Below the pieces are notes generated by a model. That model was not told the origin of the DNA. It made no database searches and was given only the letters and a program-made list of their open reading frames with translations. The translations under genes and the position numbers were made by a program. This document shows positions 9,241-35,436 of a stretch of DNA of 64,000 nt, piece by piece. Origin of the DNA: Cyclobacteriaceae bacterium (GTDB taxonomy: Bacteria; Bacteroidota; Bacteroidia; Cytophagales; Cyclobacteriaceae). The stretch is from NCBI GenBank assembly GCA_036273935.1, contig DASUGQ010000118.1:4474-68473 (forward strand). Direction: 5' to 3'. The number at the start of each line of letters is the position of its first letter. Position 1 is the first letter of the stretch.

Positions 9241-9245
9241 CATTG

Positions 9246-11854: not shown

Positions 11855-11936
11855 CCTGGCCTGGTTTAGTAGGGGAATGGGTGTAGCGATGCATCCATTC
11901 TCTTTTTTATTCAATATTTTTTTATTCCTGCCGGTC

Positions 11937-14900
11937 ATGAGATACGCCTACCTCGCTTTATTTTTTTTCTTTTTTATAGTTGATGCGAATTCGCAAATTC
12001 ATCAGATTGATATTCCCCGCGTTGAACAGATGCCAGATGCTCCATCGCCATATGTCATGCGTGATTGGAAATCGGTAGCTACGCAGTACGACGCGCTCGT
12101 GTTCGATCAGGCGCTCACCGGAACACACCTTCCACTGATCTCATTGAAGTCATCTGGAAAAAACTATCCCGACCTTAAACCTATTCAGCTCGATACCTAT
12201 GTCGGCACAATCAGTGAAACCCAAGCAGAAGCAATCAATATTATTCCTGCAATTGTGAGTGCTTCCTTGATGGGCGTTGACAAAACCAATCAGAATGGAA
12301 TGAACTGGGTGGAGAAGATCAAAGATTTTTACAATTCTGCTAATGGCCAGAACGTTTACCTGAATGGCACGAGCAGCACCAGCGGTAATGACTGGTGGTA
12401 TGACACAATGCCCAATGTTTTCTTTTACCAGGCTTTCACATTTTATCCGGAGATTCCGGATTTTGAGGATCAATTCATTTCAGTTGCAGACCGGTGGTTG
12501 GAAGCCGTGTATGCAATGGGCGGTAAAACAACTCCCTGGAGCACACCTTTCATGAACTATCGCGGCTGGTATCTGTCCAGCATGACCGGAAACGCCACGA
12601 GTGTTAAGGAGCCGGAAGCCGCCGGATCAATTGCGTGGATACTATATCAAGCGTATAGCCATACCAGTGACCGGAAATACCTCGAGGGCGCGCAACTGTG
12701 CATTGATTATCTTTCGGGACTTAATTCAAACCCTGCTTATGAATTACAGCTTCCGTATGGAACACTGACCGCAGCAAAACTGAATGCGACGCTTGGTGCG
12801 AATTACGACATTGAAAAAATATTAAACTGGAGCTTCAACCGTGGTGACCTCCGCGGTTGGGGAACAATTGTCGGGTCGTGGGACGGCAAAGATGTAAGTG
12901 GGTTAGTGGGAGAGGCCAACGATGCCGGAAATGATTATGCATTCATGATGAATGGATATCAACAGGTGGCAGCACTTGCACCGGTTGCAAAATATGATAA
13001 ACGATTTGCCCGCGCGCTCGCAAAGTGGATACTGAACGTAGCAAATGCGAGCCGGCTGTATTATCCCCAATACCTGGAAAGCGCCAAACAAGATGATTAC
13101 AACTGGAGCACTCAATATGATCCGGGATCGGTGATTGGCTATGAGGCTTTAAAGGAAAATCTCGATGGAAAGGCGCTGTACGGAACAGGCGATGCAAAGC
13201 GCAACGGATGGGCAGCTACTAATCTCGCTTTGTATGGTTCTTCTCACGTCGGCTATCTGGCAGCGGTGGTGGAACCGACAATCGTGGAAAAGATTTTAAA
13301 GCTTGACCTTAATAGAACAGATTTCTTTGCTGAAAACAGCTTCCCAACTTTTTTGCTGTACAATCCTTATGAGGAAACAAAGATGGTGATGCTTAACGAG
13401 GGTGCCGGCTCTTATAGGATCTATGACGCAATATCAGAAACGGTCCTTGCGGAAAATGTGTCTGGTGATATTGCGCTTAATATTAACCCGGATGAAGTGA
13501 TCATGTTAACATTTCTTCCTGCAGGATCAACAATTACGGTCAAAGGAAATAAGCTTTATGTAGACGAACATGTGATCGATTACCACTATGGTTACGATTT
13601 CAATCCGGTATTCCGCATTAAGTCGCTGGCAGCAGACAAAACTACTGCCGCCTTCGGCGATGACATCAATCTCTTTGCTACCGTTGAAAATGCGGTGGCT
13701 CCGGTGTCATACAAGTGGTATGTTAACGACGTACTTCAAAGCGAAACGGAAACGGCAAACTTTTCATGGACGGCACCAGGCGCCGAAGGGGTTACTGAAA
13801 TGAAGGTCGAAGCGATTTCAAATGCAACAATAGTGAAGGACAGCTTATCGATAACTGTTGTACCGGTGATTCCGATACCACCTGCAATCATTGGAATTAC
13901 GGCTGATCAGAAATATTACCTCAACGGTGCCACAGCAAAAATCGTCGTTGCTGTTCGGGATGCTCAGGTAAAACATTTCACTTATAACTGGATTGTTCCA
14001 TCGGGCAATTTTGAACAACAGGATTCCCTCATCACCTGGACAACACCCGCGGAAGGCGTTTACCTTGTCCGTTGCATTGTAACGAATGAATTCAATCTCA
14101 CGTCCGAGACAAGCATTGATATCCTGGTCAAGTCAGAATCTGACGGTAGTACTTCACCGTTGGCCTATTATCCCCTCAATGTTGATGTGAATGATTACAG
14201 CGGTAATGATTTTAATGGAAAGGTGGAAGGCACGCAACAAGCTGATGATGCATTGGGTGTAGATGATTATGCTTACCGGTTTACTTCTGGCAGCGACGTC
14301 ATTTATGTTGACAATAAATCGGAATTAAACTTTCGCGACGCGATCACACTTTCTTTCTGGATGTCTCCGGGGTCTGCCGGACATGAAGCATTTTTGATTT
14401 CACATGGCAGCTGGGAGGAGCGCTGGAAGATTTCCATTACCCCTGATAAGAAATTGCGTTGGACTGTGAAAACTGAAAACGGCGTGCGTGATCTTGACAG
14501 TAAAGAGGCGCTCACAAACAACGAGTTTATTCATGTCACGTGTGTCTACACGGGATATTCAATGGAACTATTCATCGATGGCGAGCTTGATGGATTTATT
14601 GCGCATGACGGAAAAATTTTGACAACAGGAAAGCAAATTACATTTGGACAAAAGGATTATTCTGACAGGGGATATTACTACAATGGCGTGCTTGACGAAA
14701 TCAGGATTTATGACAAAACATTGCAGCCCGATGAAATTATTCAATTGAAGGAGCTTTGGCATGAGGAACCTGTTGCTCCTTCCACCGGAGTTAGTAAGAA
14801 GGTTCGGATTTATCCAAATCCCACACAGGACGGGGCTGTGACTGTTGAACATCGTGATGGCAAAATTCTAACGCTTGACGTGTTCACGCCTGATGGCAGA

Positions 14901-15032
14901 TCGATCCCTGTCGAAGAGAATATCGGATATAATAAAGCCACGATAAGGCTCTATGAAGCACAACACGGAGTATTTCTAATTCGGGTGACTACGAGTAATG
15001 GAGTTACCTATTCCCGAATAATTCGAAATTAA
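11937..15032 (+). CDS. Secreted multidomain protein: a domain paralogous to 4430-6154, Ig/PKD-like repeats, a LamG domain and a T9SS C-terminal sorting domain
   Basis: The track ORF starts at 11673 but overlaps the upstream gene. 'MRYAYLALFFFFFIVDANSQ' at 11937 looks like a signal peptide, with alternatives at 11877 and 11889. The LamG motif is 'GVLDEIRIYDKTLQPDEI', and the C-terminal 'VRIYPNPTQDGAVTV...FLIRVTTSNGVTYSRIIRN' is a type A T9SS sorting domain. Confidence 0.75.
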   Translation: MRYAYLALFFFFFIVDANSQIHQIDIPRVEQMPDAPSPYVMRDWKSVATQYDALVFDQALTGTHLPLISLKSSGKNYPDLKPIQLDTYVGTISETQAEAINIIPAIVSASLMGVDKTNQNGMNWVEKIKDFYNSANGQNVYLNGTSSTSGNDWWYDTMPNVFFYQAFTFYPEIPDFEDQFISVADRWLEAVYAMGGKTTPWSTPFMNYRGWYLSSMTGNATSVKEPEAAGSIAWILYQAYSHTSDRKYLEGAQLCIDYLSGLNSNPAYELQLPYGTLTAAKLNATLGANYDIEKILNWSFNRGDLRGWGTIVGSWDGKDVSGLVGEANDAGNDYAFMMNGYQQVAALAPVAKYDKRFARALAKWILNVANASRLYYPQYLESAKQDDYNWSTQYDPGSVIGYEALKENLDGKALYGTGDAKRNGWAATNLALYGSSHVGYLAAVVEPTIVEKILKLDLNRTDFFAENSFPTFLLYNPYEETKMVMLNEGAGSYRIYDAISETVLAENVSGDIALNINPDEVIMLTFLPAGSTITVKGNKLYVDEHVIDYHYGYDFNPVFRIKSLAADKTTAAFGDDINLFATVENAVAPVSYKWYVNDVLQSETETANFSWTAPGAEGVTEMKVEAISNATIVKDSLSITVVPVIPIPPAIIGITADQKYYLNGATAKIVVAVRDAQVKHFTYNWIVPSGNFEQQDSLITWTTPAEGVYLVRCIVTNEFNLTSETSIDILVKSESDGSTSPLAYYPLNVDVNDYSGNDFNGKVEGTQQADDALGVDDYAYRFTSGSDVIYVDNKSELNFRDAITLSFWMSPGSAGHEAFLISHGSWEERWKISITPDKKLRWTVKTENGVRDLDSKEALTNNEFIHVTCVYTGYSMELFIDGELDGFIAHDGKILTTGKQITFGQKDYSDRGYYYNGVLDEIRIYDKTLQPDEIIQLKELWHEEPVAPSTGVSKKVRIYPNPTQDGAVTVEHRDGKILTLDVFTPDGRSIPVEENIGYNKATIRLYEAQHGVFLIRVTTSNGVTYSRIIRN

Positions 15033-15068
15033 GCAATTATGAAAACGAAAAATATTATTTAAACTAAT

Positions 15069-16214
15069 ATGAACACACTTAAGTTTGCTGTAGTCGGTGC
15101 CGGAGAATTTGCCTTCTTTGCTGTGACCGAATTTGTCAGGGTACCCGGCGTGAAACTGGTCGGTGTATACGACGAACAAAAGGAAAACAGCCTTAAGTTC
15201 AAGACTATTGATGCCCAGATCAAAATTTACACCTCACTGGAATCACTTTGTGCTGAGAACGATATTGATCTGGTATACATCGCCACGCCGCCCTACCTTC
15301 ATTACGAGCAATCCAAATCGGCGTTGTTATCCGGAAAGCATGTGATATGCGAAAAACCCGCGGCTATAAAACTCGAACATGCAATCGAACTCAGGAAGAT
15401 CGCCAATGAAAGAGGATTGTTATTTGTCGTTAACCTGATGCAGCGGTATAACTTTCTTTATGATGTTGTTAAAGAAATCATTGATCAGATGATGCTCGGA
15501 GAATTCCTTCATGGCTTCTTCGAAAACTACGCATCTGATGAAGCCCTTGGTGTAACTCACTGGTTCTGGGACCGGGAAAAATCCGGTGGAATATTTATTG
15601 AGCACGGCGTCCATTTCTTCGATATGTTTTCGGGTTGGTTAGGCGAAGGATCTATAGTGGCCTCTCAAAAACTAAATCGCCCCGGGTATCCTCACATAAT
15701 AGATAAGGTTCATGCGACGGCGCTGTATAACGGTGGTCTCGTAAATTTTTATCATGCGTTCGATCAGCCTAAACGGATGGATCGCCAGGAAATGAGACTG
15801 CAATTCGAGCGGGGCGAACTTACCCTTTATGAGTGGGTGCCCACGCGGCTCCGGATGATTGCACTCTGCACTGAGACAGAGCTTACCTTCTTCCGGACAA
15901 AATTCCCTCGTGGCAATATTTCATTCAAACAATCATTTGCTGAACCACAGATAGTTCGCGGGCGATTTAAACCGTTCACTTTTAATTATAAACTTTCATT
16001 GGATACGGGAGATGATGTGGAGAAGCAGGATATGTATCAAAACCTCATTCGTAGTATGTTACAGGATCAGCTCACCTGGATTTACAACCGCGGCCATATG
16101 CGCAAGGTCACCGGAGATAACGCGGTTGCTTCTTTGAAACTAGCCGAAGATGCAGAGTTACGCGCCACGGTTTTACAGGCGCGGAATGCAACAATGACTG
16201 TCACCCATGAATAA
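15069..16214 (+). CDS. Gfo/Idh/MocA-family NAD(P)-dependent oxidoreductase
   Basis: It has an N-terminal Rossmann fold 'KFAVVGAGEFA' and the family 'VICEKPAA' (EKP) motif. Confidence 0.8.
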   Translation: MNTLKFAVVGAGEFAFFAVTEFVRVPGVKLVGVYDEQKENSLKFKTIDAQIKIYTSLESLCAENDIDLVYIATPPYLHYEQSKSALLSGKHVICEKPAAIKLEHAIELRKIANERGLLFVVNLMQRYNFLYDVVKEIIDQMMLGEFLHGFFENYASDEALGVTHWFWDREKSGGIFIEHGVHFFDMFSGWLGEGSIVASQKLNRPGYPHIIDKVHATALYNGGLVNFYHAFDQPKRMDRQEMRLQFERGELTLYEWVPTRLRMIALCTETELTFFRTKFPRGNISFKQSFAEPQIVRGRFKPFTFNYKLSLDTGDDVEKQDMYQNLIRSMLQDQLTWIYNRGHMRKVTGDNAVASLKLAEDAELRATVLQARNATMTVTHE

Positions 16215-18014: not shown

Positions 18015-18531
18015 CTAAACCCGAACAAGGAATGATATTATCTAAGTAGGGTTCAATGGGGGTTTATAGGACGCAACCCATTGAGCCGCCATGCGTGACT
18101 CGGAACAGCGTGGACGGCAGCCTCCAACTCTCCCTTGCGATGTATTAGGAAACCTTGAGCCAGATCTTGACGTTATGTCAATATTGACATATATTTACAG
18201 GTGGAATGGGTACTCGAGATAAGCCGCTCGTTTGGCTGCAAGGTGAAATAAAGACGCCACCGTTTTCGGCTCAGGCAAGAATTGAAGTTGGCTATTTATT
18301 ACGACGCTTACAGAAAGGCGAGAAGCTATCCCTGCCGCATTCACGTCCTATGCCGTCTATTGGTGCAAGATGCCATGAGCTTCGGATTGTGGATGATGAT
18401 AAGATTTGGCGGATTGTGCATCGAATTGATAAAGATGCCATTTTGATTTTAGAAGTTTTTCAAAAGAAAACGCAAAAAACCCCATCGACAATTGCAAACG
18501 CCGGATTAAACAATATGATAGTTAAAGGAAA
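18015..18531 (+). repeat. Copy A of a roughly 0.5 kb direct repeat (leader plus HigB-like toxin gene)
   Basis: By eye it aligns along its whole length with 19074-19599, with scattered substitutions and several indels. Confidence 0.85.
18175..18190. promoter_or_regulatory. Perfect 16-bp palindrome ATGTCAATATTGACAT; candidate operator of the toxin-antitoxin promoter
   Basis: The site lies 16 nt upstream of the toxin ATG (18206). Copy B (19249-19264) has the same site with one mismatch. Type II antitoxins usually autoregulate through such palindromes. Confidence 0.5.
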
Positions 18532-18544
18532 TACATATGAATAG
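18206..18544 (+). CDS. HigB/RelE-superfamily toxin (Gp49/DUF891-like), with its C-terminal tail altered by an 8-nt deletion relative to copy B
   Basis: 'KTPPFSAQARIEVGYLLRRLQKGEKLSLPHSRPMPSIGARCHELRIVDDDKIWRIVHRID' fits the Gp49-like toxin family. Copy B ends '...TPQNVIDNCKRRIKQYDS*', whereas copy A reads the same DNA out of frame after 'QKTP'. Confidence 0.7.
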   Translation: MGTRDKPLVWLQGEIKTPPFSAQARIEVGYLLRRLQKGEKLSLPHSRPMPSIGARCHELRIVDDDKIWRIVHRIDKDAILILEVFQKKTQKTPSTIANAGLNNMIVKGNTYE

Positions 18545-18845
18545 CACAAAAAGAAAACGTCTAGAAGCGAAAGGGTGGAAGGTAGGTAATGTTCAGGGAT
18601 TTCTGAATCTTTCGCCGGAGGAGGCTGCGTATATTGAATTTAAACTTGCCTTGAGTAAAAATCTGCAAGATTATCGCAAGGCCAAGCGACTCACTCAAAC
18701 TGAACTCGCACGCCGAATCAAATCGAGCCAGTCAAGGGTTGCAAAGATGGAGTCCGGCGATCCATCCGTTTCAATTGACCTGCTGGTTCGATCATTATTT
18801 GCGTTGGGTGCGTCCAAAAAGCGCTTGGCCGGCATGCTTGCGTAA
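18537..18845 (+). CDS. XRE-family HTH antitoxin (HigA-like)
   Basis: 'RLTQTELARRIKSSQSRVAKMESGDPSVSIDLLVRSLFALG' is a classic HTH_XRE. It lies immediately downstream of the toxin. Confidence 0.8.
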   Translation: MNSTKRKRLEAKGWKVGNVQGFLNLSPEEAAYIEFKLALSKNLQDYRKAKRLTQTELARRIKSSQSRVAKMESGDPSVSIDLLVRSLFALGASKKRLAGMLA

Positions 18846-19073: not shown

Positions 19074-19599
19074 CTAAATCCGAACAAGGAAATAATATTA
19101 TCTAATTAGGGTTCAATGAGCTTGTGATAAAAAGGCTCATAGGACGCCAACACGTTGAGAACCGCCATGCGCGATTCGGAACAGCACGGACGACAGCCTC
19201 CAGTCTCCTTACGATAAATTAGGAAACCTTGAGCCGACCCTTGATGTTATGTCAATACTGACATATTTACAGTTGGAATGAATATTCGAAACAAGCCACT
19301 GCGAGGTGAAGACGCCACCGTTTTCGGCCCAGGCAAGAATTGAAGCTGGTTATTTATTTCGACGACTGCAGAAAGGCGAGAAGCTATCTCTGCCACATTC
19401 CTATCCGATGCCGTCTATTGGGACAAGATGCTACGAGCTTCGGATTGTAGATGATGATAAGATTTGGCGGATTGTGCATCGGATTGATAAAGATGCCAAT
19501 TTGATTCTGCAAGTTTTTCAAAAGACGACGCAGAAAACTCCCCAAAACGTCATTGACAATTGCAAGCGCCGGATTAAACAGTATGATAGTTAAAGGAAA
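19074..19599 (+). repeat. Copy B of the roughly 0.5 kb direct repeat
   Basis: See copy A. The similarity stops right after the toxin stop codon, so no antitoxin gene follows. Confidence 0.85.
19278..19593 (+). pseudogene. Orphan, 5'-damaged HigB-like toxin copy
   Basis: The ancestral ATG at 19278 is out of frame because this copy is 14 nt shorter than copy A after 'NKPL'. Only a GTG-initiated ORF (19306-19593) remains, and there is no cognate antitoxin. Confidence 0.6.
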
Positions 19600-19974
19600 A
19601 ACCTGACGATTTGGTCTCCGGTAAGTTTATCCACCCTGTTCTTGGTTATCTTTTTTTAGGAGACGAGTCGACCGCCGCCACTAGCGCTGCAGTTATAAGG
19701 GCAAGTTTCCTTTTTGCGCGTTCTTGTTCTTTATTATTTTCTTGTTGTTACGATTTTTTTTGCATATTTGAGCAGAATTTAAAGAATTTTTGATCGCCGT
19801 TAAAAAACATCTGACCTTGTAATTTCCGTTGATTGTGCCATTCAATACAATTTCACATTAACTCTCCGCTCGATGATGGGCCTGTCTTTTTGTTTTATCG
19901 CGACCTACTCGTCTGAAATGTGTATACGCGTGTTATTGCTTTAAAGAAAATCATAAAACGATAGTTAAGCATCT

Positions 19975-22657: not shown

Positions 22658-22966
22658 CCCGAAAGAGATTTTTAGGGTTTTGTTGAGTGACAAAAGTAGA
22701 TATTCTGACGAAGAACGCCAAGAATTGGAGGAATGATAATTGATCCGGAGTGTCGCCTTGCTTGCCGCAAAGTCCACTCCGGCATTCGCTACCTACATTA
22801 GTTCGCATCGCCCGAAGCGGGACTTTACTTCTCACACCCTCTCTCCACTCGCGGCGCCCGCCGTTTCTCTCTGGGCGCCGGCTCGCAAAATTTTCTGCAC
22901 TACTTTCTCATTTGGCCGGAAATATGTATTTTTTGAGAATTTGTAAACACGTCACAATACCGTTAT

Positions 22967-24307
22967 ATGTCAGACACTATCGTTTACCACTACAATAGCC
23001 CTTCAGTTTTAAACAAGAATATCGATTCAGATGAACTTTTTCTCTCCAAATACAGTGAGGTCCAAAAGAAGGATGCACCTTGTTTCTTTTGGGGGAGTCT
23101 GAAAGATCCATACATCACTTCTCGTTGTTTAATAACACTCTCAAATGTAGTTCAGTCCTCATTCAATCTTTCTCCTTTCCAGATGGCGCTTCTCAAAGAC
23201 CCAATCGTTACGGCTGGAAATGAGAAAATTCGTTTTGAAGGTTTCTCCCATTGTGCAGGCGTATACGCGCGTGTTGATATTCTTCCTGATGGTCATGACG
23301 GAGAATTTCCGGAAAATGGAACGACCAACGTGGATTTCAATCAACCAATGATATCAGCGCTAAGCAGCGTGAACAGAACAGAGAAGGTTTTACTTTCTGT
23401 GGGAAAAAATGAGGTAGCCGTTTCTAAAGAAGGACAAAAAGTGGTTGAAAGAAAGGTCCCTCTCCCAGCAAAATGGATTAAAGGCTTAACAACTGTACAA
23501 CTATTCTTAGCTGAAGCCGAAAAGGTGTTTACGTTTAACAGAATTCAAACCCTTCAACTTTTCCAGAGCTTGCCGAATGGCAAACCAAAAACTGATTATT
23601 ACCTGACCACGAGGGCGGGTAAGCCTTCCTTCTCACCAGTAAAATCCGACAATGGTATTTGTATTGGTGGTATCCATCGCCTTCGCTTGCTGGAACCATT
23701 GATACCACTAGCAACGGAACTGAGAGTCTTTCCTCACCCAGCAATGCAATCGGTAACTTGGCAATTATACTTTGGAATGGTCCGATTTAGCTTGTCCATT
23801 TCGCGCGATGCTTGGAGAGGCTTTTCCGGAGAAGGTGCAGCGCTTGAGTCATTGATAGAGGATGTACCGGACGGTTGGATTGATGCTGTTGATAAGTTCA
23901 GTTATGCCAATCAGGAATTTAACCCAACCTTGCTTTCAGTTGAAGAGGGACTTGATTTAAAAAAGGTCGAGAACATAACAGGCCGCCTGTCAGCAATGGG
24001 ATTGCTGGGTTACGACCTGGACGAAAATCATTTTTTTTACCGCCGGCTTCCATTCAAGCTAAACCGGATTTTAAGTTTAAATCCACGCCTCAAAGATGCC
24101 GAAAAGTTACTACAGGAGAAAAAAGTGGAGATTACCCTTCAAACCGATAACAGAGTTGAGGCAAAGGTGCAAGGCAGTGGTGTTAATCATTTCATTGTAC
24201 TGGAAGGTGATAGTGAAAAATGTACCTGCACATGGTTTAGTAAACACCAGGGTGAACGAGGGCTCTGCAAGCATATCCTTGCCGTGAAGAAACAACTTAT
24301 AAGCTAA
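22967..24307 (+). CDS. SWIM zinc-finger family protein (large N-terminal domain of unknown function plus a C-terminal SWIM domain)
   Basis: The C-terminal 'CTCTWFSKHQGERGLCKHILAV' is the CxCx(n)CxH SWIM signature. The N-terminal block 'IRFEGFSHCAGVYARVDILPDG...GTTNVDFNQPM' is what I recall from bacterial stand-alone SWIM proteins. Confidence 0.85.
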   Translation: MSDTIVYHYNSPSVLNKNIDSDELFLSKYSEVQKKDAPCFFWGSLKDPYITSRCLITLSNVVQSSFNLSPFQMALLKDPIVTAGNEKIRFEGFSHCAGVYARVDILPDGHDGEFPENGTTNVDFNQPMISALSSVNRTEKVLLSVGKNEVAVSKEGQKVVERKVPLPAKWIKGLTTVQLFLAEAEKVFTFNRIQTLQLFQSLPNGKPKTDYYLTTRAGKPSFSPVKSDNGICIGGIHRLRLLEPLIPLATELRVFPHPAMQSVTWQLYFGMVRFSLSISRDAWRGFSGEGAALESLIEDVPDGWIDAVDKFSYANQEFNPTLLSVEEGLDLKKVENITGRLSAMGLLGYDLDENHFFYRRLPFKLNRILSLNPRLKDAEKLLQEKKVEITLQTDNRVEAKVQGSGVNHFIVLEGDSEKCTCTWFSKHQGERGLCKHILAVKKQLIS

Positions 24308-24319
24308 TCATCAACTTTA

Positions 24320-27274
24320 ATGGTATCAGAAGAATTCAGCACGATCCTGAAAAAGGAGCAGTTGAGACAATTGATTCCCTTTTTAAAATCGTTGGAAAAA
24401 AGTGACAAAAAGGAAATCGCCTCGTTGTTAAAACCGCTGGCAAAGGAGTATTTGGATTACCTACCAGTAACTCCATTGTTAGGGACAACAACCTATAAGC
24501 AGAAAGCCACACCCAGCCAGGTGAATATTTTATATGCGGCAGCATTCGTGTGCTTAAATCGGAAAGACTATCAGAAATTTGACCGGTTTGGCCACATGCT
24601 AAACAATAAAATTCTTGACGACATACTTCCTTGGTATTGCCCGGATTGGTTTAGTGATTCGATCAATGATTTAACCAAACGGGATTGGATTCCATGGAAT
24701 TTTGGATACAAGGATGCTATGGCATTGGCGGAAAAAGGGCACCTAAATCCTAGTGATGAACTTATCGTCAAGCTTATTCCACAGATGATTTTCGAACAAG
24801 ATGCCAAACACAAATTTTTATATCTTCCTCAGCAACTCAGGAAACGACCCATTACACTTGAAAAACACATTTGGCTGATCTTTCAATTTGAAACCACTAT
24901 TAATTATAGTGATCGTTATCACCAATTTCAAAACGCCAATAAGGATGAACGTCTTTGGATAACTGCTTTAAAACAATGTAGCAACGACGGATTGTTAGAT
25001 AGGCAGCGCTTACTTAGAGAATCGATTCTGGCCACAGGTCGTAATTTCAACAAAGCTTTGTCAGGGTGGTTCGTTGAACTGTTTGAGTTTTTAGAGCCCA
25101 CGGAACAAGAACTAATAACATTGCAGCCCGAATTGTTCAACGTATTAAGCTCCCAACAAAGCAAGGCAATCAATTCCGCTTTAAATTCACTCAAGAAGAT
25201 TGTTGAGGAAAAAGAGTTTAATGCGGTAGGTTTTCTAGAGAACGCGCCGATACTCCTTTCTTGTGAAACCAAATCAGTGGTTTCATCGACTCTTTTGCTG
25301 TTTGAGAAGATACTCCGTAAAAATGCTTCGCTCAAAGAAGAAATTTGCATAGCGACATGCCAGGCATTCATACACAATGATGAGAATATTCAAAATAAGG
25401 CATCTAAATTATTATTGAAGTGTCATGATGATTCTTTAAGGTCAGTAACGGAGGAGATCACGAAGTACGCTGACTCCATGTTAATGACTTCAAAAAAAAT
25501 TTTATCAGACTTTCTCGCTGTCACACCGAAGCAGCAAGAGGACAACATAACCGACACCTCAGAATCGAATGAAGCTATTGGTACAGGTCAGGAAATCACA
25601 TCGCTTGATGAGCTGATCTTTTTAGCCAGTCAGGCTTTCGATAACAATGACCCGCTACACATTGACCTTCTGCCTGCAGCACTGGTTAAACTGCAGGATC
25701 AAATAACCGGTTCGGTTCTTCATAAGTTTGAACCGGCACTACAGAGAGCCTATTCTTTTGTGATGAATGATTGGCCTTCAACCATGGGTTATTTGGACCA
25801 TCTGTTAGCAACATTCTTTCTTGATTTGACAAATTTATTGATTGACCGATTCCCAACCGAAGGTTCATCATTGAAACAAATTCACGTATCATTTCAAAAG
25901 AAGGATGCTGAAAGCAAGGCTAAATGGTCTTGGTACAACTCAAGAATTTTAAACTTACCAACCTGGTCGGTGCATAGTAGGGACACGACCTATATAATCC
26001 ATAAGGCTATCCTGCTCATCGCATATGAAAAGATAAAGAACGCAGATCATCTGTCCATCCTTTCAACACCAACCCACGAACATGGTTATCTGGATCCGAT
26101 GGTACTGGTTAATCGTTTGGAGCTTTATCAGGGCAAAACCGTGTTACCTGATAACTATGATTTTCAACTGGCAATTTCGCGGGTCGCTCCCTTTAATCAC
26201 GACGAAGCATTGAAGGAAGCAAGAAAAACGTTAAAGGGGGAGGTCCTTCAAATTATGGAATTCCTTTTGGATAAAGACGAACAACCAAGACCACCATTCA
26301 ACACACCTTCCTTATGGTTTATGGCCGGTGTCACCAAATCACCTCAGCACACCTATCCGGAGTTTGATCATTTCTTTTATGCGACATTGCCAAAATCAAC
26401 TTTTACAGGAGATGTCCCATGGCGTTCTTTTGTTGAGCATTATAAGACAACAAGATACAATTATGAAAAGCGGACTCCTGAGGAAGTCACTGCTCAGCAC
26501 AATGTTCTCAGGTTAACTTTAAATCCATATCCGTCGATCTGGCAGGAACCGGAGGAAAAGAAAGAAAGCGTGCTGTCAAAGCTTACAAGTCTGATCTCGA
26601 CACCTAAGAAAGCCAGACGAGAGGACACATTTATCCAACACGAGTATCTCTCATTAAAAACACCTTACATTGCTGCAGAGCATAACGACATACAGCGTTT
26701 TATCTATCTGTTTCCTTCGAATCCAAATCCAGTGCTCACCCTCGTCGCACACAGAGCACTGGTACATAGCACGCTTGCCTCGGAAAACGACAAGAAGATT
26801 TTAACCAGGACGCTGGAGGCCATTATTCACCTGAAATTCGATTTTTCTGAGATCACGCATCTTTTTATTGCCACATGCATGCTGACCAGTGACAAGACCG
26901 TGAGATCATTTGCAGCGGAGATGTGGATCCAGGGAGTCAACAACGGGAAGATAAATAATGAGCAAACCGGTAAAATTATTGGGATTCACTTTTCCAGCGG
27001 CTACGCTCCTTTGAAAAGATTCACTGACCTTGTTTCAAGCAACCTGTTGAAAATCTCACAAACGCACAATATAGAACTGGAAGCTATCCTTACTGCCGTC
27101 ATTGAAAATCTACCAACAGAGCCTCCGGTAGGCACGAAAAGACTACTTGAATTGTATTCAGAAGTTTTAGCACTGAATAACGCCTCTGTTGCTTCGAATT
27201 CAGCCAAACAACGCCTGGCGTCATGGACTGCTTCATCTGGGCTTAAAAAGCTTATTTCATCTTTGCCCGTCTGA
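24320..27274 (+). CDS. 984-aa helical-repeat protein of unknown function, partner of the SWIM protein (possibly DUF6493/DUF4132-like; unverified)
   Basis: It starts 12 nt after the SWIM stop and has no signal peptide or transmembrane segment. I recognised no Walker A, nuclease or other catalytic motif. The composition is Leu/Lys/Glu-rich, as in HEAT/ARM-like repeats. Confidence 0.7.
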   Translation: MVSEEFSTILKKEQLRQLIPFLKSLEKSDKKEIASLLKPLAKEYLDYLPVTPLLGTTTYKQKATPSQVNILYAAAFVCLNRKDYQKFDRFGHMLNNKILDDILPWYCPDWFSDSINDLTKRDWIPWNFGYKDAMALAEKGHLNPSDELIVKLIPQMIFEQDAKHKFLYLPQQLRKRPITLEKHIWLIFQFETTINYSDRYHQFQNANKDERLWITALKQCSNDGLLDRQRLLRESILATGRNFNKALSGWFVELFEFLEPTEQELITLQPELFNVLSSQQSKAINSALNSLKKIVEEKEFNAVGFLENAPILLSCETKSVVSSTLLLFEKILRKNASLKEEICIATCQAFIHNDENIQNKASKLLLKCHDDSLRSVTEEITKYADSMLMTSKKILSDFLAVTPKQQEDNITDTSESNEAIGTGQEITSLDELIFLASQAFDNNDPLHIDLLPAALVKLQDQITGSVLHKFEPALQRAYSFVMNDWPSTMGYLDHLLATFFLDLTNLLIDRFPTEGSSLKQIHVSFQKKDAESKAKWSWYNSRILNLPTWSVHSRDTTYIIHKAILLIAYEKIKNADHLSILSTPTHEHGYLDPMVLVNRLELYQGKTVLPDNYDFQLAISRVAPFNHDEALKEARKTLKGEVLQIMEFLLDKDEQPRPPFNTPSLWFMAGVTKSPQHTYPEFDHFFYATLPKSTFTGDVPWRSFVEHYKTTRYNYEKRTPEEVTAQHNVLRLTLNPYPSIWQEPEEKKESVLSKLTSLISTPKKARREDTFIQHEYLSLKTPYIAAEHNDIQRFIYLFPSNPNPVLTLVAHRALVHSTLASENDKKILTRTLEAIIHLKFDFSEITHLFIATCMLTSDKTVRSFAAEMWIQGVNNGKINNEQTGKIIGIHFSSGYAPLKRFTDLVSSNLLKISQTHNIELEAILTAVIENLPTEPPVGTKRLLELYSEVLALNNASVASNSAKQRLASWTASSGLKKLISSLPV

Positions 27275-29528: not shown

Positions 29529-30491
29529 ATGCCTTCAATAGTAGAAACACCTCCGGTAGAGGTGCAACAAGAACTTGCCCTACTTCGGCAAGATCTTCAT
29601 ACTTTGATCCCCTCAAAACAACTAACCGGAAATGTTCTTATTGCCACTTGGAACATTCGCGCTTTCGGCGATCTCACAGAAAAATGGGAAGCAGCGGAAA
29701 ATGATTCCCCCAAACGAGACCTTCATTCATTGCTGGCGATCGCAGAGATAATTTCGCATTTTGACATTATCGCTGTCCAGGAGATTAGGGGAAACATCAA
29801 ATGCCTTCGTCATATGTTGAAAGTCTTGGGACGCGATTGGAATTTCCTGATGACCGATGTAACACGCGGCAACGCTGGTAACAACGAACGTATGGCCTTT
29901 CTCTACGACACGAGGAAAGTCAATTTGTCGGGGCTCGCCTGTGAGCTTGTGGTACCGAATGAGTGGCTCAATCGCATTGGAGAAAACGCGCTGACCAGGC
30001 AATTCGCTCGCACCCCCTATGCAGTGAGTTTCAGGGTAGGCGGCAAAACGTTTGTGTTGATAACCTTACACGTGCTTTATGGGGACAATGCCGCAGCACG
30101 CATACCCGAACTAAAGGCGATTGCCGAATGGGTGGCAGACTGGGCTAAGGAACTGCATTCTTGGGATCACAGCCTTATTGTATTGGGGGACTTCAATATC
30201 GAAAAAATAGGAGATCCAACCTATGAAGCTTTCACATCAACAGGGCTTACCGTTCCAGCCGAACTGCAGAACATTCCAAGAACAATATTCAAAAATTCGT
30301 ATAGCTTCTACGATCAAATTGCCTGGTTTGTAGATAGCCTGGCTCGACCGGAATTATCATTGACCTTCACACGGGGCAACATTTACAATTTTGTGGGTAA
30401 AGTCTTAAATAACAGAAACTACACTAACACCCAGCTTTCGCATCGAATTTCTGACCACTTTCCGTTGTGGGCAGAGTTTTCAACATTATAA
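29529..30491 (+). CDS. Endonuclease/exonuclease/phosphatase (EEP) family protein, DNase I-like, with no signal peptide
   Basis: It has the motifs 'IATWNIRAFG', 'IIAVQEIRG', 'LGDFNI' and 'SDHFPLWAEF'. Confidence 0.8.
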   Translation: MPSIVETPPVEVQQELALLRQDLHTLIPSKQLTGNVLIATWNIRAFGDLTEKWEAAENDSPKRDLHSLLAIAEIISHFDIIAVQEIRGNIKCLRHMLKVLGRDWNFLMTDVTRGNAGNNERMAFLYDTRKVNLSGLACELVVPNEWLNRIGENALTRQFARTPYAVSFRVGGKTFVLITLHVLYGDNAAARIPELKAIAEWVADWAKELHSWDHSLIVLGDFNIEKIGDPTYEAFTSTGLTVPAELQNIPRTIFKNSYSFYDQIAWFVDSLARPELSLTFTRGNIYNFVGKVLNNRNYTNTQLSHRISDHFPLWAEFSTL

Positions 30492-30755
30492 AAACTCAAA
30501 TTTCCTTATTCAGCTCCGTTTCAATTTCATTGTCGATTTCTTCATAAAACTTTCTTGTCCCGACATACATTTGATTTTTGTTCTTAGCATCGGAAAAAAT
30601 TTCGCCATGCTTCCCAGATGACGACGTTGCTGCCCTTAAGCCTTCGCAAACCCATTCAAAAGATTCGAATTAAATGATTAGATTTGAGGCTGTGAAATCT
30701 TCCTTCTTTAGCCAAGAGATCGCTTGGAACGTACTGTTAGCCGTAATTGAAACAT

Positions 30756-31361
30756 ATGATTTCCATCTACAAGATTAAGCCTAAATTTCAGCAACTTCTC
30801 AACCCTATTTTAGTCAGCCTCCATAAAAATGGAGTGACGGCAAATCAGATCACGATATCATCCATTGTTCTGTCGTTTCTAATTGGTGTGGCATTCTGGT
30901 ACGCGAAAGCCAACAGGTTGCTGTTCCTGAGTTTACCAATAGGGTTGTTAGTTAGAATGGCACTAAATGCGCTCGATGGAATGATGGCTAGGACTTACAA
31001 TCAACAATCTAAAAAAGGCGAGGTATTAAATGAGTTGGGTGACGTAATTTCTGACCTCGCAATATTTTTCCCCTTGCTCGCCTTCGAACAAAACAATATC
31101 TTCTTAATCGTTGTCTTTCTCTGTCTGAGTATTATCAATGAATTTGCCGGCCTCCTTGGGAAAGTAATATCGGGCCATAGGAGATACGATGGGCCGATGG
31201 GGAAGAGCGATCGGGCCTTTGTCATGGGGTTGTATGGTATCCTTTACTTTCTTGATGTTGGCTTAAGTAGCATATCAGTTTGGATTTTCACTATAATTAA
31301 TCTTTTGCTGGTCGTCAGTACAACGATCCGAATATTCAAATCGCTTCAACCCCATGAATGA
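30756..31361 (+). CDS. CDP-alcohol phosphatidyltransferase family protein
   Basis: 'LNALDGMMARTYNQQSKKGEVLNELGDVISD' approximates DG..AR..(8)G...D...D, and Asn sits where the first Asp of DxxDG is usual. The protein is a multi-pass membrane protein. The track start at 30747 is TTG; an ATG lies at 30756. Confidence 0.75.
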   Translation: MISIYKIKPKFQQLLNPILVSLHKNGVTANQITISSIVLSFLIGVAFWYAKANRLLFLSLPIGLLVRMALNALDGMMARTYNQQSKKGEVLNELGDVISDLAIFFPLLAFEQNNIFLIVVFLCLSIINEFAGLLGKVISGHRRYDGPMGKSDRAFVMGLYGILYFLDVGLSSISVWIFTIINLLLVVSTTIRIFKSLQPHE

Positions 31362-32307
31362 AATTCTTGAATTAAGATATTTCAAACAAAACGATCTACT
31401 GATCATCGTAGCATTGATTTTTGCTCTTTTGATCTTGGCTTCGTCATTGATATTTGTTATAGGCCGCATTAACTCTAAGGCTAAGCTTGAAGAGCTTAAG
31501 GCCCGCACCAAGTCATGGTGGATAATGGCAACAGTTTTTATTGGGGCTACGATTTTTAATACCACAATCTCCTATATCGCGATTGCTTTTCTTTCATTCG
31601 TGGCATTCCGCGAGCTGTACTCTCTTTTGGGTTTCCGGCAATCAGATCGCCGGGCAATCTTTTGGGCGTTCGTTTCAATTCCAATTCAATATTATCTGGC
31701 TTTCATTGGGTGGTATGGGGCGTTCATCATTTTTATTCCAGTAGTCATGTTCTTACTGCTCCCGCTGCGCCTTGTGCTAAAAGGAGAGACGTCTGGAATT
31801 ACCAAGTCAATGTCTATGCTACAATGGACACTGATGTTAACGGTTTTTGGCATTAGTCATCTGGCTTACCTTTTATCTCTTCCTGACATCGAAGGATTTA
31901 ATTCAGGAGGAAGGGGTCTGTTGCTATTTGTTGTCTTTCTGACGGAGATCAATGATGTGCTTCAATTTACTTGGGGGAAGCTTCTCGGTAAAAATAAGAT
32001 CATACCAAAAGTAAGTCCAAACAAAACATGGGAAGGATTTCTCGGTGGCCTTGTCTGTACAACTGGCATAGGGTATTTCCTCGCTTTCTTGACCCCTCTT
32101 ACCACCTACCAGGTTCTCATGGTCAGTTTTCTAGTTGCTCTTGCCGGGTTCATTGGTGACGTGGTTATGTCGGCCATCAAGCGAGATATCGGCGTAAAAG
32201 ACACCGGTACATCAATACCGGGCCATGGCGGTATTTTGGACCGCATTGATTCACTCGCTTACACCGCACCTGCATTTTTTCACCTGGTATATTATCTAGC
32301 ATACTAA
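31354..32307 (+). CDS. cdsA: Phosphatidate cytidylyltransferase (CDP-diglyceride synthase)
   Basis: It carries the signature 'SAIKRDIGVKDTGTSIPGHGGILDRIDS' and 'KTWEGFLGG'. It overlaps the upstream gene by 8 nt. Confidence 0.85.
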   Translation: MNEILELRYFKQNDLLIIVALIFALLILASSLIFVIGRINSKAKLEELKARTKSWWIMATVFIGATIFNTTISYIAIAFLSFVAFRELYSLLGFRQSDRRAIFWAFVSIPIQYYLAFIGWYGAFIIFIPVVMFLLLPLRLVLKGETSGITKSMSMLQWTLMLTVFGISHLAYLLSLPDIEGFNSGGRGLLLFVVFLTEINDVLQFTWGKLLGKNKIIPKVSPNKTWEGFLGGLVCTTGIGYFLAFLTPLTTYQVLMVSFLVALAGFIGDVVMSAIKRDIGVKDTGTSIPGHGGILDRIDSLAYTAPAFFHLVYYLAY

Positions 32308-32943
32308 ATGAAGAAGCTGGTCTTACAAATCACCTTTGGTTTTTTCATTAGATATTTTTTGAAGGTAATCGTTGGTGTGAGATTTAGTGAAGCGAAATTC
32401 TTAAGTAAAGAAAAACAGTTTATCATTGTCGCAAACCACAATAGCCATTTGGATACGATGAGCCTGATGGCCTCAGTTCCAAGGAGCATCGTACATAGAG
32501 TCAGACCAGTAGCCGCTCAGGACCATTTTGGTAAAACCAAAGTTCAGGAGGTATTTAGTAATTTTTTCATTAATACCTTGTTGATCACGAGAAAGCGGAA
32601 AAAAAACAACTCCGCTGTGGATCCTGTTAGTAAGATGATACAAGCTTTGGATGATGGTTATTCTTTAATAATTTTTCCCGAAGGTACGAGAGGAGAGCCC
32701 GGCAAAGAGCAACCCTTAAAACCAGGTGTAGCACTAGTTCTCAGGCAGCGACCAGAAGTTAAATATGTTCCGGTATTTATGACCGGCATGGGAAACGCTA
32801 TGCCTAAAGGAGATAGCCTTATTGTTCCCTATAATGCTCATGTGACCTATGGAGCACCAAAGAAAATCATGAGTACAAATGTTGAGGATATCTTGACGCA
32901 GATTCACAACGACCTTAACCAGTTAAAGCAGCAACACCCCTAA
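32308..32943 (+). CDS. Lysophospholipid (1-acyl-sn-glycerol-3-phosphate) acyltransferase family protein
   Basis: It has the HX4D motif 'NHNSHLD' and 'FPEGTRG'. It starts immediately after the cdsA stop. Confidence 0.8.
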   Translation: MKKLVLQITFGFFIRYFLKVIVGVRFSEAKFLSKEKQFIIVANHNSHLDTMSLMASVPRSIVHRVRPVAAQDHFGKTKVQEVFSNFFINTLLITRKRKKNNSAVDPVSKMIQALDDGYSLIIFPEGTRGEPGKEQPLKPGVALVLRQRPEVKYVPVFMTGMGNAMPKGDSLIVPYNAHVTYGAPKKIMSTNVEDILTQIHNDLNQLKQQHP

Positions 32944-33727: not shown

Positions 33728-34546
33728 ATGGCTAAAAATACGCCAAATGGAAGTGTAAGCGAATGGGTGGACAATCTGTTAACAAGGGGCAAAAATGCTT
33801 TCTCCCTTCAGCAAATGCGAGAGTCGTTTCCAGATCATTCCGAAGCAGCTATGAAGCGGGCTTTAAGCAGGCTTTCGTCGAAGAACAAAATCGTATCTGT
33901 TCATAAAGGATACTATGTAATTGTATCATATGAGCACGTTGCGAAAGGAATTGTTCCACCGCTTTTATATATCGATGGACTTATGAAATTTTTAAACAGG
34001 CCTTATTACGTAAGTCTGTTGAGTGCAGCAGCTCTGTATGGAGCAGCGCATCAGGCACCACAGGTATTCATGGTGAACACAACTTTTCCTGCGCTGCGTG
34101 TGAGCAAAAAGAAAAATGTCAGAATAAAATTTGTCCCGGTAAAAGAAATCCCAACTTCCTTATTAGAACAGAAGAAAACAGAGAGTGGGTACGTGCACAT
34201 ATCCTCACCGGAGCTTACAGCTATTGATTTGATCAATTATGCAAAGCATGTAGGTGGACTGAGCAGGGCGGCAACTGTTATTAATGAATTGGCTGACGAC
34301 ATGCGACCTGAAAAAATTGATAAGCAGCTAGCCCGACATGCAGAGACAGCAACACTTCAACGACTTGGATACATTGCCGATCAAATCCTTCATCGGAATG
34401 ATCTGGCCGACGCCATTGAAAACATTTGTAAAAAAATGAACTTGAAATTTTATAGGGTTTCTTTAATGGCAAAGGGCAAGCGTTATGGTTATCCTTGCAA
34501 CGAGCGTTGGAAAGTCATTGAAAACAGCATGATTGAAATAGACTGA
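33728..34546 (+). CDS. abiEi: AbiEi-family antitoxin/transcriptional regulator (type IV toxin-antitoxin or abortive infection)
   Basis: It has an N-terminal winged-helix region 'LQQMRESFPDHSEAAMKRALSRLSSKNKIVSVHKGYYVIV'. It overlaps the AbiEii start (TGATG). Confidence 0.8.
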   Translation: MAKNTPNGSVSEWVDNLLTRGKNAFSLQQMRESFPDHSEAAMKRALSRLSSKNKIVSVHKGYYVIVSYEHVAKGIVPPLLYIDGLMKFLNRPYYVSLLSAAALYGAAHQAPQVFMVNTTFPALRVSKKKNVRIKFVPVKEIPTSLLEQKKTESGYVHISSPELTAIDLINYAKHVGGLSRAATVINELADDMRPEKIDKQLARHAETATLQRLGYIADQILHRNDLADAIENICKKMNLKFYRVSLMAKGKRYGYPCNERWKVIENSMIEID

Positions 34547-35331
34547 TGATACCCATTAAACATATACAAGAGTGGAGTCATTTTGCGCCCTGGCAGGACA
34601 ATTATCAAATCGAGCAGGATCTTGTCATTTCAAGAGTGCTGGTGGAAATTTTCGCTGACCCTTTTCTGAAGGAACGTCTGGCTTTTCGTGGGGGCACTGC
34701 TTTACATAAATTATTTCTTAAAGAGCCTGCACGTTACTCTGAAGACATTGACCTGGTTCAGATTACCGGCGGACCCATCGGTGAAATACTAGACCGCCTG
34801 AGAATGGTTCTAAGTTGGTTCGAAAAGGTGAATGTTGAACGAAGTGAAATTACCAGCACCATGATTTTCCGATACGAGTCGGAAGCCGAACCTAAAGTGA
34901 AGCGGAAGCTGAAAGTAGAGATAAATGCAAGAGAGCACTTTGCCTTATTAGGTTACAATAAAATTTTCTTCGAGGTCAAATCTGAATGGTTTACGGGTGC
35001 AACTGAAATTCCATCTTTTTATATTGAAGAAATGCTTTCAACAAAACTTCGTGCGTTGTTTCAGCGAAGGAAGGGCAGGGATTTATTTGATCTCTACTGC
35101 GCGCTTACTGAAAATGAAATAGACTCGGCAAAGGTGATTGCTGGATTTCATGAATATTTGAAACGAGGGGACAACACGATAACGGCAGCCAATTTCATGC
35201 AAAACTTGGATGAGAAAGTGGTGGATGCGAACTTTCTAGGAGACATTGAAGCGCTCATCAGGCCGGACGTAAAATATGAAAGCCAAAAGGCCTACGAATT
35301 GGTAAAGGCAGAATTGATAGAAAAAATTTAG
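34546..35331 (+). CDS. abiEii: AbiEii/AbiGii-family nucleotidyltransferase toxin (DUF1814)
   Basis: It has the motifs 'LAFRGGTALHKLF' and 'RYSEDIDLV', which are typical of the AbiEii nucleotidyltransferase fold. Confidence 0.85.
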   Translation: MIPIKHIQEWSHFAPWQDNYQIEQDLVISRVLVEIFADPFLKERLAFRGGTALHKLFLKEPARYSEDIDLVQITGGPIGEILDRLRMVLSWFEKVNVERSEITSTMIFRYESEAEPKVKRKLKVEINAREHFALLGYNKIFFEVKSEWFTGATEIPSFYIEEMLSTKLRALFQRRKGRDLFDLYCALTENEIDSAKVIAGFHEYLKRGDNTITAANFMQNLDEKVVDANFLGDIEALIRPDVKYESQKAYELVKAELIEKI

Positions 35332-35395
35332 ATGCGAAATGTAACCTTTGTTAGTAGCCAGTTAGTTTATTTATGTATGTCAAGGAACAAAGCAT

Positions 35396-35436
35396 CAACA
35401 AAAATCATCTAATCATCAATAGAAAAATCTTAACAT
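35396..35436 (+). repeat. Right copy of the imperfect 41-nt direct repeat
   Basis: See 22617-22657. It lies between the AbiEii stop and the integrase stop. Confidence 0.8.

Follow-up and report, generated by a model that had tools for sequence, protein, structure and literature searches.

The genes analyzed here form an adjacent pair in a window of 64,000 nucleotides (nt) from a Cyclobacteriaceae bacterium (contig DASUGQ010000118.1); this whole stretch of DNA is referred to as the window. The first gene encodes a protein of 446 amino acids (aa) that ends in a SWIM zinc finger, and the second encodes a 984-aa protein of the DUF6493 family. The pair was shown to be a two-gene operon that is conserved across phyla and stably inherited on chromosomes. 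It is a free-standing relative, without a reverse transcriptase (RT), of the accessory genes of type XIII retrons. We give an even chance to the reading that the two proteins constitute a nucleic-acid-binding two-subunit complex of the kind carried by these retrons.

The gene pair and its co-conservation

Both genes start with ATG and are co-directional on the plus strand. Open reading frame (ORF) calling placed the first at 22967-24307 (446 aa) and the second at 24320-27274 (984 aa), verifying the two ORFs and the 12-nt gap between them that had been given in a preliminary description of this DNA. The short spacer implies that the SWIM and DUF6493 genes are co-transcribed as an operon. Spacings of -11 to +28 nt, or overlaps, were found in most other Bacteroidota loci. 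The features of the pair are listed below, with AF2 denoting AlphaFold2 and wHTH winged helix-turn-helix.

22967..24307, + strand: gene of the 446-aa SWIM protein, the highly conserved subunit and a homologue of the type XIII retron accessory SWIM protein (ORF, translation)
23078..23455, + strand: predicted clamp-fold domain A, aa ~38-163 (AF2 secondary structure, Foldseek against PDB and BFVD, invariant columns)
23456..23806, + strand: predicted clamp-fold domain B, aa ~164-280 (AF2 secondary structure, Foldseek, family charge)
23816..23836, + strand: invariant loop RGFSGEG, aa 284-290, situated between clamp-like region and winged helix, chosen as the best-conserved peptide pattern (family alignments)
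23867..24046, + strand: predicted winged-helix domain, aa ~301-360, slightly acidic (AF2, weak Pfam wHTH matches, profile match)
24122..24304, + strand: SWIM zinc-finger domain, aa ~386-446, with C419, C421, C434, and H436 (Pfam PF04434, motif CxCx12CxH)
24308..24319, + strand: intergenic spacer of 12 nt (ORF calls)
24320..27274, + strand: gene of the 984-aa partner, a predicted ARM/HEAT α-solenoid and the faster-diverging subunit (Pfam, AF2, Foldseek, profile match)

Conservation of the pair was followed in a scan of 185,579 genomes, one per species, in which at least 586 SWIM loci were confirmed. ORFs were called and family hidden Markov models (HMMs) were run on the best 80 loci, all of them from Bacteroidota. 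A directly adjacent gene of the DUF6493 family on the same strand accompanied the full-length SWIM gene in 70 of 76 loci. In the other six, a DUF6493 gene was present nearby in two and was absent from four (three Myroides species and one metagenome-assembled genome). Mostly the DUF6493 gene lay downstream of the SWIM gene; in Chryseobacterium, Parabacteroides, and their relatives it lay upstream, often as two tandem paralogues. SWIM homologues with 36-39% identity on planctomycete-labelled and other metagenomic contigs also preceded DUF6493/7824/7825 genes. Within this non-Bacteroidota branch adjacency was seen in 33 of 80 metagenomic loci, the remaining ones being too short or missed by the simple ORF caller, and none of the loci with 3 kb or more on each side lacked the adjacent DUF6493 gene. 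The pair is also annotated by RefSeq in Streptomyces (Actinomycetota) and Diaphorobacter (Pseudomonadota). The earlier idea of a self-contained, co-conserved two-gene module was thus borne out by the adjacency within Bacteroidota and in other phyla.

The pairwise identities of the SWIM protein and its partner co-varied (Spearman coefficient 0.81), and the SWIM protein was the more conserved of the two in 98% of the comparisons, with a median pairwise identity of 63% versus 29%. In close species pairs the ratio of nonsynonymous to synonymous substitution rates (ω) was ~0.02-0.14, with medians of 0.055 and 0.059 for the two genes, and synonymous divergence (dS) was equal within pairs. The low ω and the equal dS imply that the SWIM and DUF6493 genes are co-inherited under purifying selection. 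Diversifying selection on the partner was considered and was unsupported by whole-gene ω values of 0.03-0.14.

Two peculiarities of individual loci are added here. Tandem DUF6493 paralogues, two full-length copies beside one SWIM gene, recurred in several lineages and in both gene orders (Bacteroides loci L027/L033/L044, L031, most Chryseobacterium loci, Diaphorobacter L171, and L097). The SWIM gene of Mucilaginibacter sp. CAU 1740 (L021, 10001-11341) appeared split into ORFs of 265 and 147 aa and was followed by an intact DUF6493 gene; the split would reflect a frameshift, pseudogenisation, or an assembly error.

Predicted structure of the two proteins

The SWIM finger with which the first protein had been said to end was identified as C419-x-C421-x12-C434-x-H436. 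The anticipated match to Pfam PF04434 was obtained at aa 418-441, marginally above the cut-off (21.0 bits versus 19.6), and all 65 family members matched PF04434. Homologues with 74-92% identity, mostly 446 aa in length, occurred across several Bacteroidota orders (Pontibacter, Chryseolinea, Sabulibacter, Mucilaginibacter), and identity dropped to 50-70% in more distant Bacteroidota. A HMMER search of 1.84 billion cluster representatives delimited a broad family of 1129 clusters (50% identity) at E ≤ 1e-3 and 280 at E ≤ 1e-30; the listed clusters, save some fragments, almost all aligned end to end. Members were placed by profile search in Armatimonadota, Clostridia, Planctomycetota, Cyanobacteriota, Burkholderiales, Omnitrophota, and other groups.

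In none of the 65 members did Pfam match the N-terminal ~290 residues, even with the threshold relaxed to E ≤ 1. The window protein contains the acidic motif D78-x7-E86-x4-E91-x31-D123-x37-E161 ("DEDE"), of which D78, E91, D123, and E161 are invariant in the family alignment. The invariant polar patch of domain A comprises D78, R89, E91, S94, R102, D104, T120, N121, D123, N125, and E161. Further invariant positions are R89, S94, C96, R102, D104, G118-T-T-N-V-D-F-N125, W170, and R238, followed by R284-G-F-S-G-E-G290, R359, R374, and the zinc ligands, the Cys and His of which do not vary in any alignment.

An AF2 model of the SWIM protein was built on a 65-sequence alignment (pLDDT 86.5, pTM 0.83) and compared with the PDB by Foldseek. 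Of 476 hits at E ≤ 1e-3, the top 50 were all PCNA or DnaN sliding clamps. The best clamp matches reached E values down to ~5e-10, a probability of 1.0, and template modeling (TM) scores of 0.63-0.71 normalised to PCNA over ~270-290 columns. Among the listed matches in the viral library BFVD, nearly all were PCNA or β-clamps, either annotated as such or unnamed, and a poxvirus late transcription factor was found at rank 23. RNase-H-like transposases or integrases were absent from the listed matches in both libraries. In the model, the secondary-structure elements of aa 39-163 follow the order β-α-β-β-β-β-β-α-β-β-β, which is the PCNA-domain topology, and another domain of this type extends to ~aa 280. 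On the basis of the AF2 model, the Foldseek matches in two libraries, and the matching order of secondary structure, aa ~38-280 are confidently predicted to adopt a PCNA/β-clamp fold, with a winged helix and the SWIM finger behind it. The N-terminal domain of ~400 aa, previously said to have no recognised enzymatic motif, thus appears to consist of a PCNA-like double clamp fold and a winged helix, with an acidic/polar motif in its first ~290 aa.

The winged helix at aa ~301-360 was indicated by recurrent weak Pfam matches to wHTH families (GntR, DprA_WH, HTH_24, IclR), and the SWIM family profile matched a wHTH of the FadR/GntR type in the PDB (E = 0.03). Clamp domain B is basic throughout the family (net charge +7.1 ± 2.0 on average), domain A neutral, and the winged helix slightly acidic. 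Invariant residues alternate along four adjacent β-strands of domain A (R89/E91, Y100/R102/D104, N121/D123/N125, and E161/K163). Such alternation on adjacent strands puts the invariant polar residues on one face of the predicted sheet. This charged patch probably binds a ligand or a metal, and it may have a catalytic role.

The partner had been described as a helical protein devoid of motifs. Its helical nature was confirmed, and a motif scan of the 984 aa found no Walker A, PD-ExK, HNH-like catalytic context, or RT (YxDD) motif. It is, however, not without recognisable domains: Pfam assigned DUF6493 to aa 3-319 (306 bits, a match that had been foreseen), DUF7824 to aa 424-691 (218 bits), and DUF7825 to aa 701-982 (222 bits), at gathering cut-offs of 25-27.5 bits. 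Its AF2 model (pLDDT 87.8) is a nearly all-helical α-solenoid in which two linkers are disordered and aa 701-732 form a long β-hairpin. Foldseek returned only generic HEAT/ARM solenoids with low TM scores (TBCD, CAND1, karyopherins, condensin, FANCI-type), and positions 272-371 of the DUF6493 family profile matched consensus armadillo repeats (E = 1e-9). Among the scored candidates, 180 relatives were found at E ≤ 1e-3. The same three-domain architecture was present in all 120 listed, at identities of 35-73% when the window's own record (100%) is set aside. Neither protein was matched by any NCBIfam model, and a direct sequence search of the PDB gave no relatives for either.

Relation to type XIII retrons and to other systems

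The type XIII retrons Mx162, Mx65, Ne144, and Sa163 carry an accessory protein of cluster 114_1, described as "DEDE + winged helix + SWIM" (Mestre et al. 2020, PMC7736814). This protein combines a Dx7[D]x4Ex30-32Dx37E motif in its centre with a winged helix resembling that of DprA and a SWIM finger of the form CxCx12CxH (PMC7736814). The type XIII SWIM protein usually occurs with a HEAT/ARM protein (clusters 216/259/1688/3262), in some cases with a WGR-like domain, whose gene usually precedes the SWIM gene (PMC7736814). A transposase origin was proposed by the same authors for the SWIM protein, the D/E motif being reminiscent of IS256/Mutator, and they noted vertical inheritance and a possible non-defence role of type XIII (PMC7736814).

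The SWIM protein of the window matched the PADLOC model PDLC02972 (SWIM_XIII) with E = 4.2e-58 and 195 bits, and the model was matched by 54 of 54 distant family members over positions ~102-502 of 509. The two SWIM proteins are thus homologous over most of their length and share the spacing of the acidic motif, the CxCx12CxH finger, and the position of the winged helix. In both cases a gene for a large ARM/HEAT protein adjoins the SWIM gene; that of the window encodes a predicted solenoid whose family is only marginally similar to the retron models. The window differs from the retrons in its gene order, SWIM then HEAT, and in a partner that lacks a WGR domain.

As to the remaining retron components, no ORF of more than 200 aa with a YxDD-type motif was present in the 64-kb window, no RVT family occurred among the annotated neighbours, and no RT was evident in the related loci inspected. 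Rfam gave no hit to an msr/msd noncoding RNA (ncRNA) in the window (gathering thresholds, E ≤ 1), although the type XIII ncRNA may not be in Rfam, and no tRNA was found either. The 514-nt leader of the SWIM gene was examined as a candidate ncRNA/msr-msd and rejected; z-scores of -1.2 and -2.6 (minus strand -2.6) versus shuffles indicated weak structure, and the leader was unique to the window, being conserved in no related locus. The same leader contains an unusually GC-rich segment (22750-22890), overlapped by an 82-aa ORF with a GTG start (22750-22998). Because RT, ncRNA, and a third component are all missing, the pair in the window is not a retron but an accessory pair standing alone.

The pair had been presented as a candidate undescribed system, which is not wholly correct: RefSeq lists a "SWIM zinc finger family protein" and a "DUF6493 family protein", and the SWIM family appears in Mestre et al. 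Catalogued under its RefSeq and Pfam names, the pair is nevertheless uncharacterised. The literature search returned no paper on DUF6493, on SWIM with DUF4132, or on SWIM with a sliding clamp and a retron, and no functional data on yehQ; type XIII was mentioned after 2020 only in surveys. Not found described in the literature searched are the tie between a free-standing pair and the retron-XIII accessory module and the predicted clamp-fold assignment, which argues against the published transposase suggestion.

Three further systems were compared. With PCNA, DnaN, and viral processivity factors the SWIM protein shares the two predicted clamp-type domains at aa ~38-280. It differs from PCNA and DnaN in the fusion to wHTH and SWIM domains, in weakly basic inner helices, and in the invariant acidic/polar patch; we know of no real sliding clamp with such an invariant patch.

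The Escherichia coli yeh cluster, named in the preliminary description as an analogue, does exist and comprises YehF (WGR), YehH/YehI (DUF4132), YehL (MoxR), YehM, YehP (VWA), and YehQ (SWIM). There, too, a SWIM-finger protein co-occurs with very large helical proteins. The analogy turned out to be architectural at best. YehQ has 614 aa and N-terminal SWIM fingers, and YehQ, YehI, and YehH gave no match to the SWIM or DUF6493 profiles at E ≤ 10 (hmmsearch). A relationship of the partner to DUF4132, for which a test had been advised, was not upheld by hhalign, in which the DUF6493 alignment matched YehI with a probability of 0.2%. MoxR or VWA genes were found neither among the window neighbours nor among the 25 most frequent families per neighbour set (41 loci, 231 genes). 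A single physical link between DUF6493 and DUF4132 was observed: in locus L007 (8001-17371), the SWIM gene is followed by three DUF6493-type ORFs (699, 411, and 1080 aa) and then by a WGR-DUF4132 gene.

MULE/Mutator transposases and FAR1/FHY3 resemble the SWIM protein in having a C-terminal SWIM finger behind a domain with conserved acidic residues. The SWIM protein is, in contrast, predicted to be clamp-like and not RNase-H-like, and it gave no transposase signal in Pfam. Unlike Mutator elements, its gene is single-copy and syntenic, and no inverted repeats of at least 30 nt occurred in the window.

Genomic neighbourhood and interpretation

Three genes on either side of the pair were scanned with PADLOC and Pfam in 41 genus-level loci (231 proteins). 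No recurrent defence family was found beside the pair in this set, a result that, as no background model was applied, is compatible with weak enrichment. PADLOC hits were scattered singletons: one IetA with a subtilase, one DRT-type RT, one PDC-S01, and some helicases. Among the flank proteins of loci L030-L088, the matches to RT_UG29 (DRT) and PDC-S01 had E values of 2.6e-40 and 6e-193, respectively; the RT_UG29-matching neighbour was not located by a simple motif scan. "ARMADA", considered as a candidate ARM-repeat defence system, was discarded, being DISARM-like and unrelated. Housekeeping flanks identified by Pfam included release factor (PCRF), SRP54, SufBD, fumarase, FTHFS, RlmN, and EF-P, and ordinary accessory flanks included short-chain dehydrogenases/reductases, AraC/TetR regulators, and TonB receptors. 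Toxin-antitoxin (TA) genes or integrases flank the pair in the window and in L008, L170, and L171. Relatives of the SWIM protein were absent from 2.9 million viral contigs (IMG/VR) and from 50,697 phage genomes (INPHARED), and the gene was found on 16 of 72,556 plasmids, mostly large non-mobilizable Streptomyces replicons.

Clustering of the neighbours revealed only synteny within genera, with the same flanks in ~22 Chryseobacterium species, and no recurrent third gene beyond these Chryseobacterium clusters. Two candidates for a conserved association were rejected. Upstream genes of ~450 aa in several distant loci were mutually unrelated, one of them being RarA-like; this is a RarA/MgsA-type AAA+ ATPase gene directly upstream of the SWIM gene in L094 (5300-6664), a single metagenomic case. 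A linkage to RNA repair had been suggested by Pnkp/Hen1, Thg1, and RNA ligase near three of the first five loci, and after clustering of 1126 neighbours Hen1 remained in only two loci. Pnkp/Hen1 lie near the pair in Sabulibacter (L001, 13013-16935) and in Dawidia (L005, 6875-8090 and 13598-15560), where Thg1 and a kinase occur as well.

In the window itself the pair is accompanied by the following features.

18206-18845: HigB(Gp49)/HTH pair
19306-19593: degraded duplicate of a Gp49(HigB)-like toxin, GTG start, 95 aa
22592-22657 and 35371-35436: 66-nt direct repeat, copies 79% identical and 12,779 nt apart
29529-30491: Exo_endo_phos (endonuclease/exonuclease/phosphatase, EEP) nuclease
33728-35331: AbiEi/AbiEii
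35469-36626, - strand: tyrosine integrase, just outside the right repeat copy

The direct repeat brackets the SWIM pair, a CarboxypepD_reg/BACON gene, the EEP nuclease, three phospholipid-synthesis genes, and AbiEi/AbiEii; a gene for an FG-GAP protein sorted by the type IX secretion system (T9SS) lies directly upstream of the block. Either decayed att-like sites from a past integration or a shared regulatory element could explain the repeats, which were absent from all related loci compared. The neighbourhood had been called a defence-like accessory block. AbiE, nuclease, TA debris, integrase, and repeats were indeed located, but phospholipid-synthesis genes and the CarboxypepD_reg/BACON gene are present as well, and the block is not a clean defence island. 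Apart from one integrase family found in three other loci, the genes flanking the pair in the window did not recur beside it elsewhere, and the AbiE/integrase setting is best read as a local circumstance of this window.

Some observations on the window concern other genes. The Gp49(HigB)-like toxin locus underwent a tandem duplication of ~1.07 kb, 85-90% identical (18133-18534 versus 19207-19602), and its second toxin copy is shortened at the N terminus and has no copy of the HTH antitoxin downstream, as in a degraded or orphan TA copy. Genes for a CDP-alcohol phosphatidyltransferase, a CTP_transf_1/CdsA-like protein, and an acyltransferase lie between the EEP nuclease and AbiE (30747-32943), an odd cargo for an island. 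A polysaccharide-utilisation locus occupies 2059-16214 (GH130, MFS, a 574-aa protein without a Pfam match, SusC/SusD); next come Laminin_G_3 proteins, of which one is T9SS-sorted, and a GFO/IDH/MocA oxidoreductase.

In the reading to which we give an even chance, the SWIM and DUF6493 proteins would together form a single conserved complex, inherited on the chromosome and acting on nucleic acid. Its invariant core would be the 446-aa SWIM protein, made up of a pair of clamp folds (A with the charged patch, B basic), the winged helix, and the SWIM finger, and the ARM/HEAT solenoid of ~1000 aa would be a variable scaffold or specificity subunit, sometimes duplicated. The bound nucleic acid would be multicopy single-stranded DNA (msDNA) in the retron version and a cellular or incoming DNA or RNA structure in the free-standing version. 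Binding of nucleic acid is suggested by the basic domain B, the predicted clamp fold, the wHTH and SWIM domains, and the association of the retron branch with msDNA.

Several observations weigh against this reading. The Myroides loci L030, L046, and L086 retain a full-length SWIM gene (~10001-11350) with no DUF6493 gene within ±10 kb, so the SWIM protein can apparently exist without its partner. (In L030 and L086 it is directly followed, on its own strand, by a gene for an RlmN-like radical-SAM protein, confirmed by Pfam in L030; in L046 a 165-aa minus-strand ORF lies between.) The HEAT-ARM_XIII models were reached only marginally, by 1 of 35 DUF6493 members each (E = 0.0025 and 0.05), and the window protein matched neither; homology of the DUF6493 partner to the retron HEAT/ARM partner is therefore unproven, alike as the architectures are. 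The likeness to clamps is structural only. PCNA_N/C, DNA_pol3_beta, and Rad1/Rad9/Hus1 were not matched by any of the 65 SWIM members in Pfam at E ≤ 1, hhalign compared the SWIM family with human PCNA at a probability of 0.15%, and no clamp occurred among the PDB sequence or profile matches. The four predicted clamp helices together carry a net charge of only about +4, which makes a DNA-encircling ring doubtful, and the slightly acidic winged helix may bind protein instead of nucleic acid. Finally, no recognisable effector or enzyme domain was detected in either protein by Pfam, NCBIfam, PADLOC, or motif scans.

The alternatives differ in what the pair would act on. In a defence system against phages or mobile elements, which we regard as unlikely, the SWIM/clamp protein would sense invading nucleic acid and the HEAT protein would be a sensor or scaffold with cryptic effector activity. 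The retron-associated branch of the family, its HMM in PADLOC, the AbiE genes, HigBA-like TA pair, and integrase near the pair in the window, and the TA genes or integrases at L008, L170, and L171 would fit such a system, as would the patchy distribution (at least 586 of 185,579 species genomes) and the duplication and faster divergence of the partner, a frequent trait of sensor subunits. Defence neighbours, however, did not recur among the 231 flanking genes of 41 loci, the flanks are often housekeeping genes, and synteny is stable in ~22 Chryseobacterium species. The pair is absent from the viral and phage collections searched and present on only 16 of 72,556 plasmids; ω of ~0.06 for both genes gives no whole-gene signal of diversification; there is no recognisable effector; and vertical inheritance with a possible non-defence role was noted for type XIII by Mestre et al. 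(PMC7736814). We conclude that the pair is not specifically a defence-island or mobile-element gene pair and that a typical mobile defence system is, on balance, disfavoured. Of the early suggestion that the pair is related to nucleic acid or mobile elements, the nucleic-acid link stays plausible, and the mobile part is not supported, in view of scattered neighbours, housekeeping flanks, few plasmid copies, and no viral ones. An accessory role in DNA replication, repair, or recombination appears unlikely to a similar degree. Here the SWIM protein would provide an alternative PCNA/9-1-1-like platform that recruits the HEAT scaffold to particular DNA structures. The predicted clamp fold points in this direction, together with the extremely high identity among SWIM proteins (74-92% within the closest orders and 50-70% in the rest of the phylum) under strong purifying selection, chromosomal and largely taxon-coherent inheritance with genus-level synteny, and RarA/MgsA directly upstream in one locus. 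Yet a maintenance factor fits poorly with a presence that is patchy and not universal, with clamp helices that are weakly basic and have no sequence homology to real clamps, and with the missing linkage to replication or repair genes, the RarA neighbour being a single case.

Two other explanations are far less probable. MULE transposases classically end in a SWIM finger (Makarova et al. 2002, cited in PMC7736814). The protein could be a domesticated DDE/"DEDE" transposase-derived nuclease of the MULE/FAR1 type whose invariant acidic residues might chelate metal, an origin suggested by Mestre et al. from the IS256/Mutator-like D/E motif (PMC7736814). We consider this highly improbable. All 50 listed PDB matches are sliding clamps and nearly all in BFVD are clamps, with no RNase-H-like fold; no transposase was matched in Pfam by the 65 members at E ≤ 1; the gene is single-copy, stably syntenic, and not surrounded by inverted repeats of at least 30 nt in the window; and the AF2 model places the acidic residues on the strands of a clamp-type β-sheet. 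Very unlikely, too, is a protein-only scaffold or regulator, in which SWIM and winged helix would serve to contact other proteins and the solenoid would act as an adaptor, for instance when another complex is assembled or turned over. In its favour are the protein-protein contacts made by SWIM domains in some eukaryotic proteins, the acidity of the winged helix, the protein-binding adaptors CAND1, TBCD, and karyopherins as best solenoid matches, and the lack of any enzymatic domain. Against this stand the link of the homologous pair to retrons and msDNA, the basic character of clamp-like domain B, the association with DNA of every described clamp-fold match listed from PDB and BFVD, and the lack of a conserved third gene as a possible client.

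A variant of the preferred nucleic-acid-binding complex goes further, and we hold it to be decidedly unlikely. The PCNA-like domain would then be an unrecognised catalytic or ligand-sensing module instead of a passive clamp, and the SWIM-HEAT pair would be an ancient autonomous nucleic-acid-processing machine that was later coupled to the founding (Mx162-type) retrons, with msDNA as substrate or regulator. Its site would be formed by D78/E91/D104/D123/E161 and R89/R102/K163/N121/N125 on one β-sheet face and would bind a metal or a nucleotide.

For the labelling of such genes, the neighbourhood of one window is a poor basis for calling a pair "defence". The wider meaning lies with the retrons, the first of which ever found was the type XIII retron Mx162. 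The SWIM + ARM/HEAT module exists without an RT in hundreds of species and several phyla. This RT-less occurrence, the stable inheritance under purifying selection, and the predicted clamp fold together reframe the retron as an add-on to a pre-existing complex that would bind nucleic acid. Testable targets are offered by the invariant patch, by the basic domain B, and by the interface of SWIM protein and solenoid, and a catalytic or sensing module, if true, would give a first mechanistic handle on the role of Mx162-type retrons.

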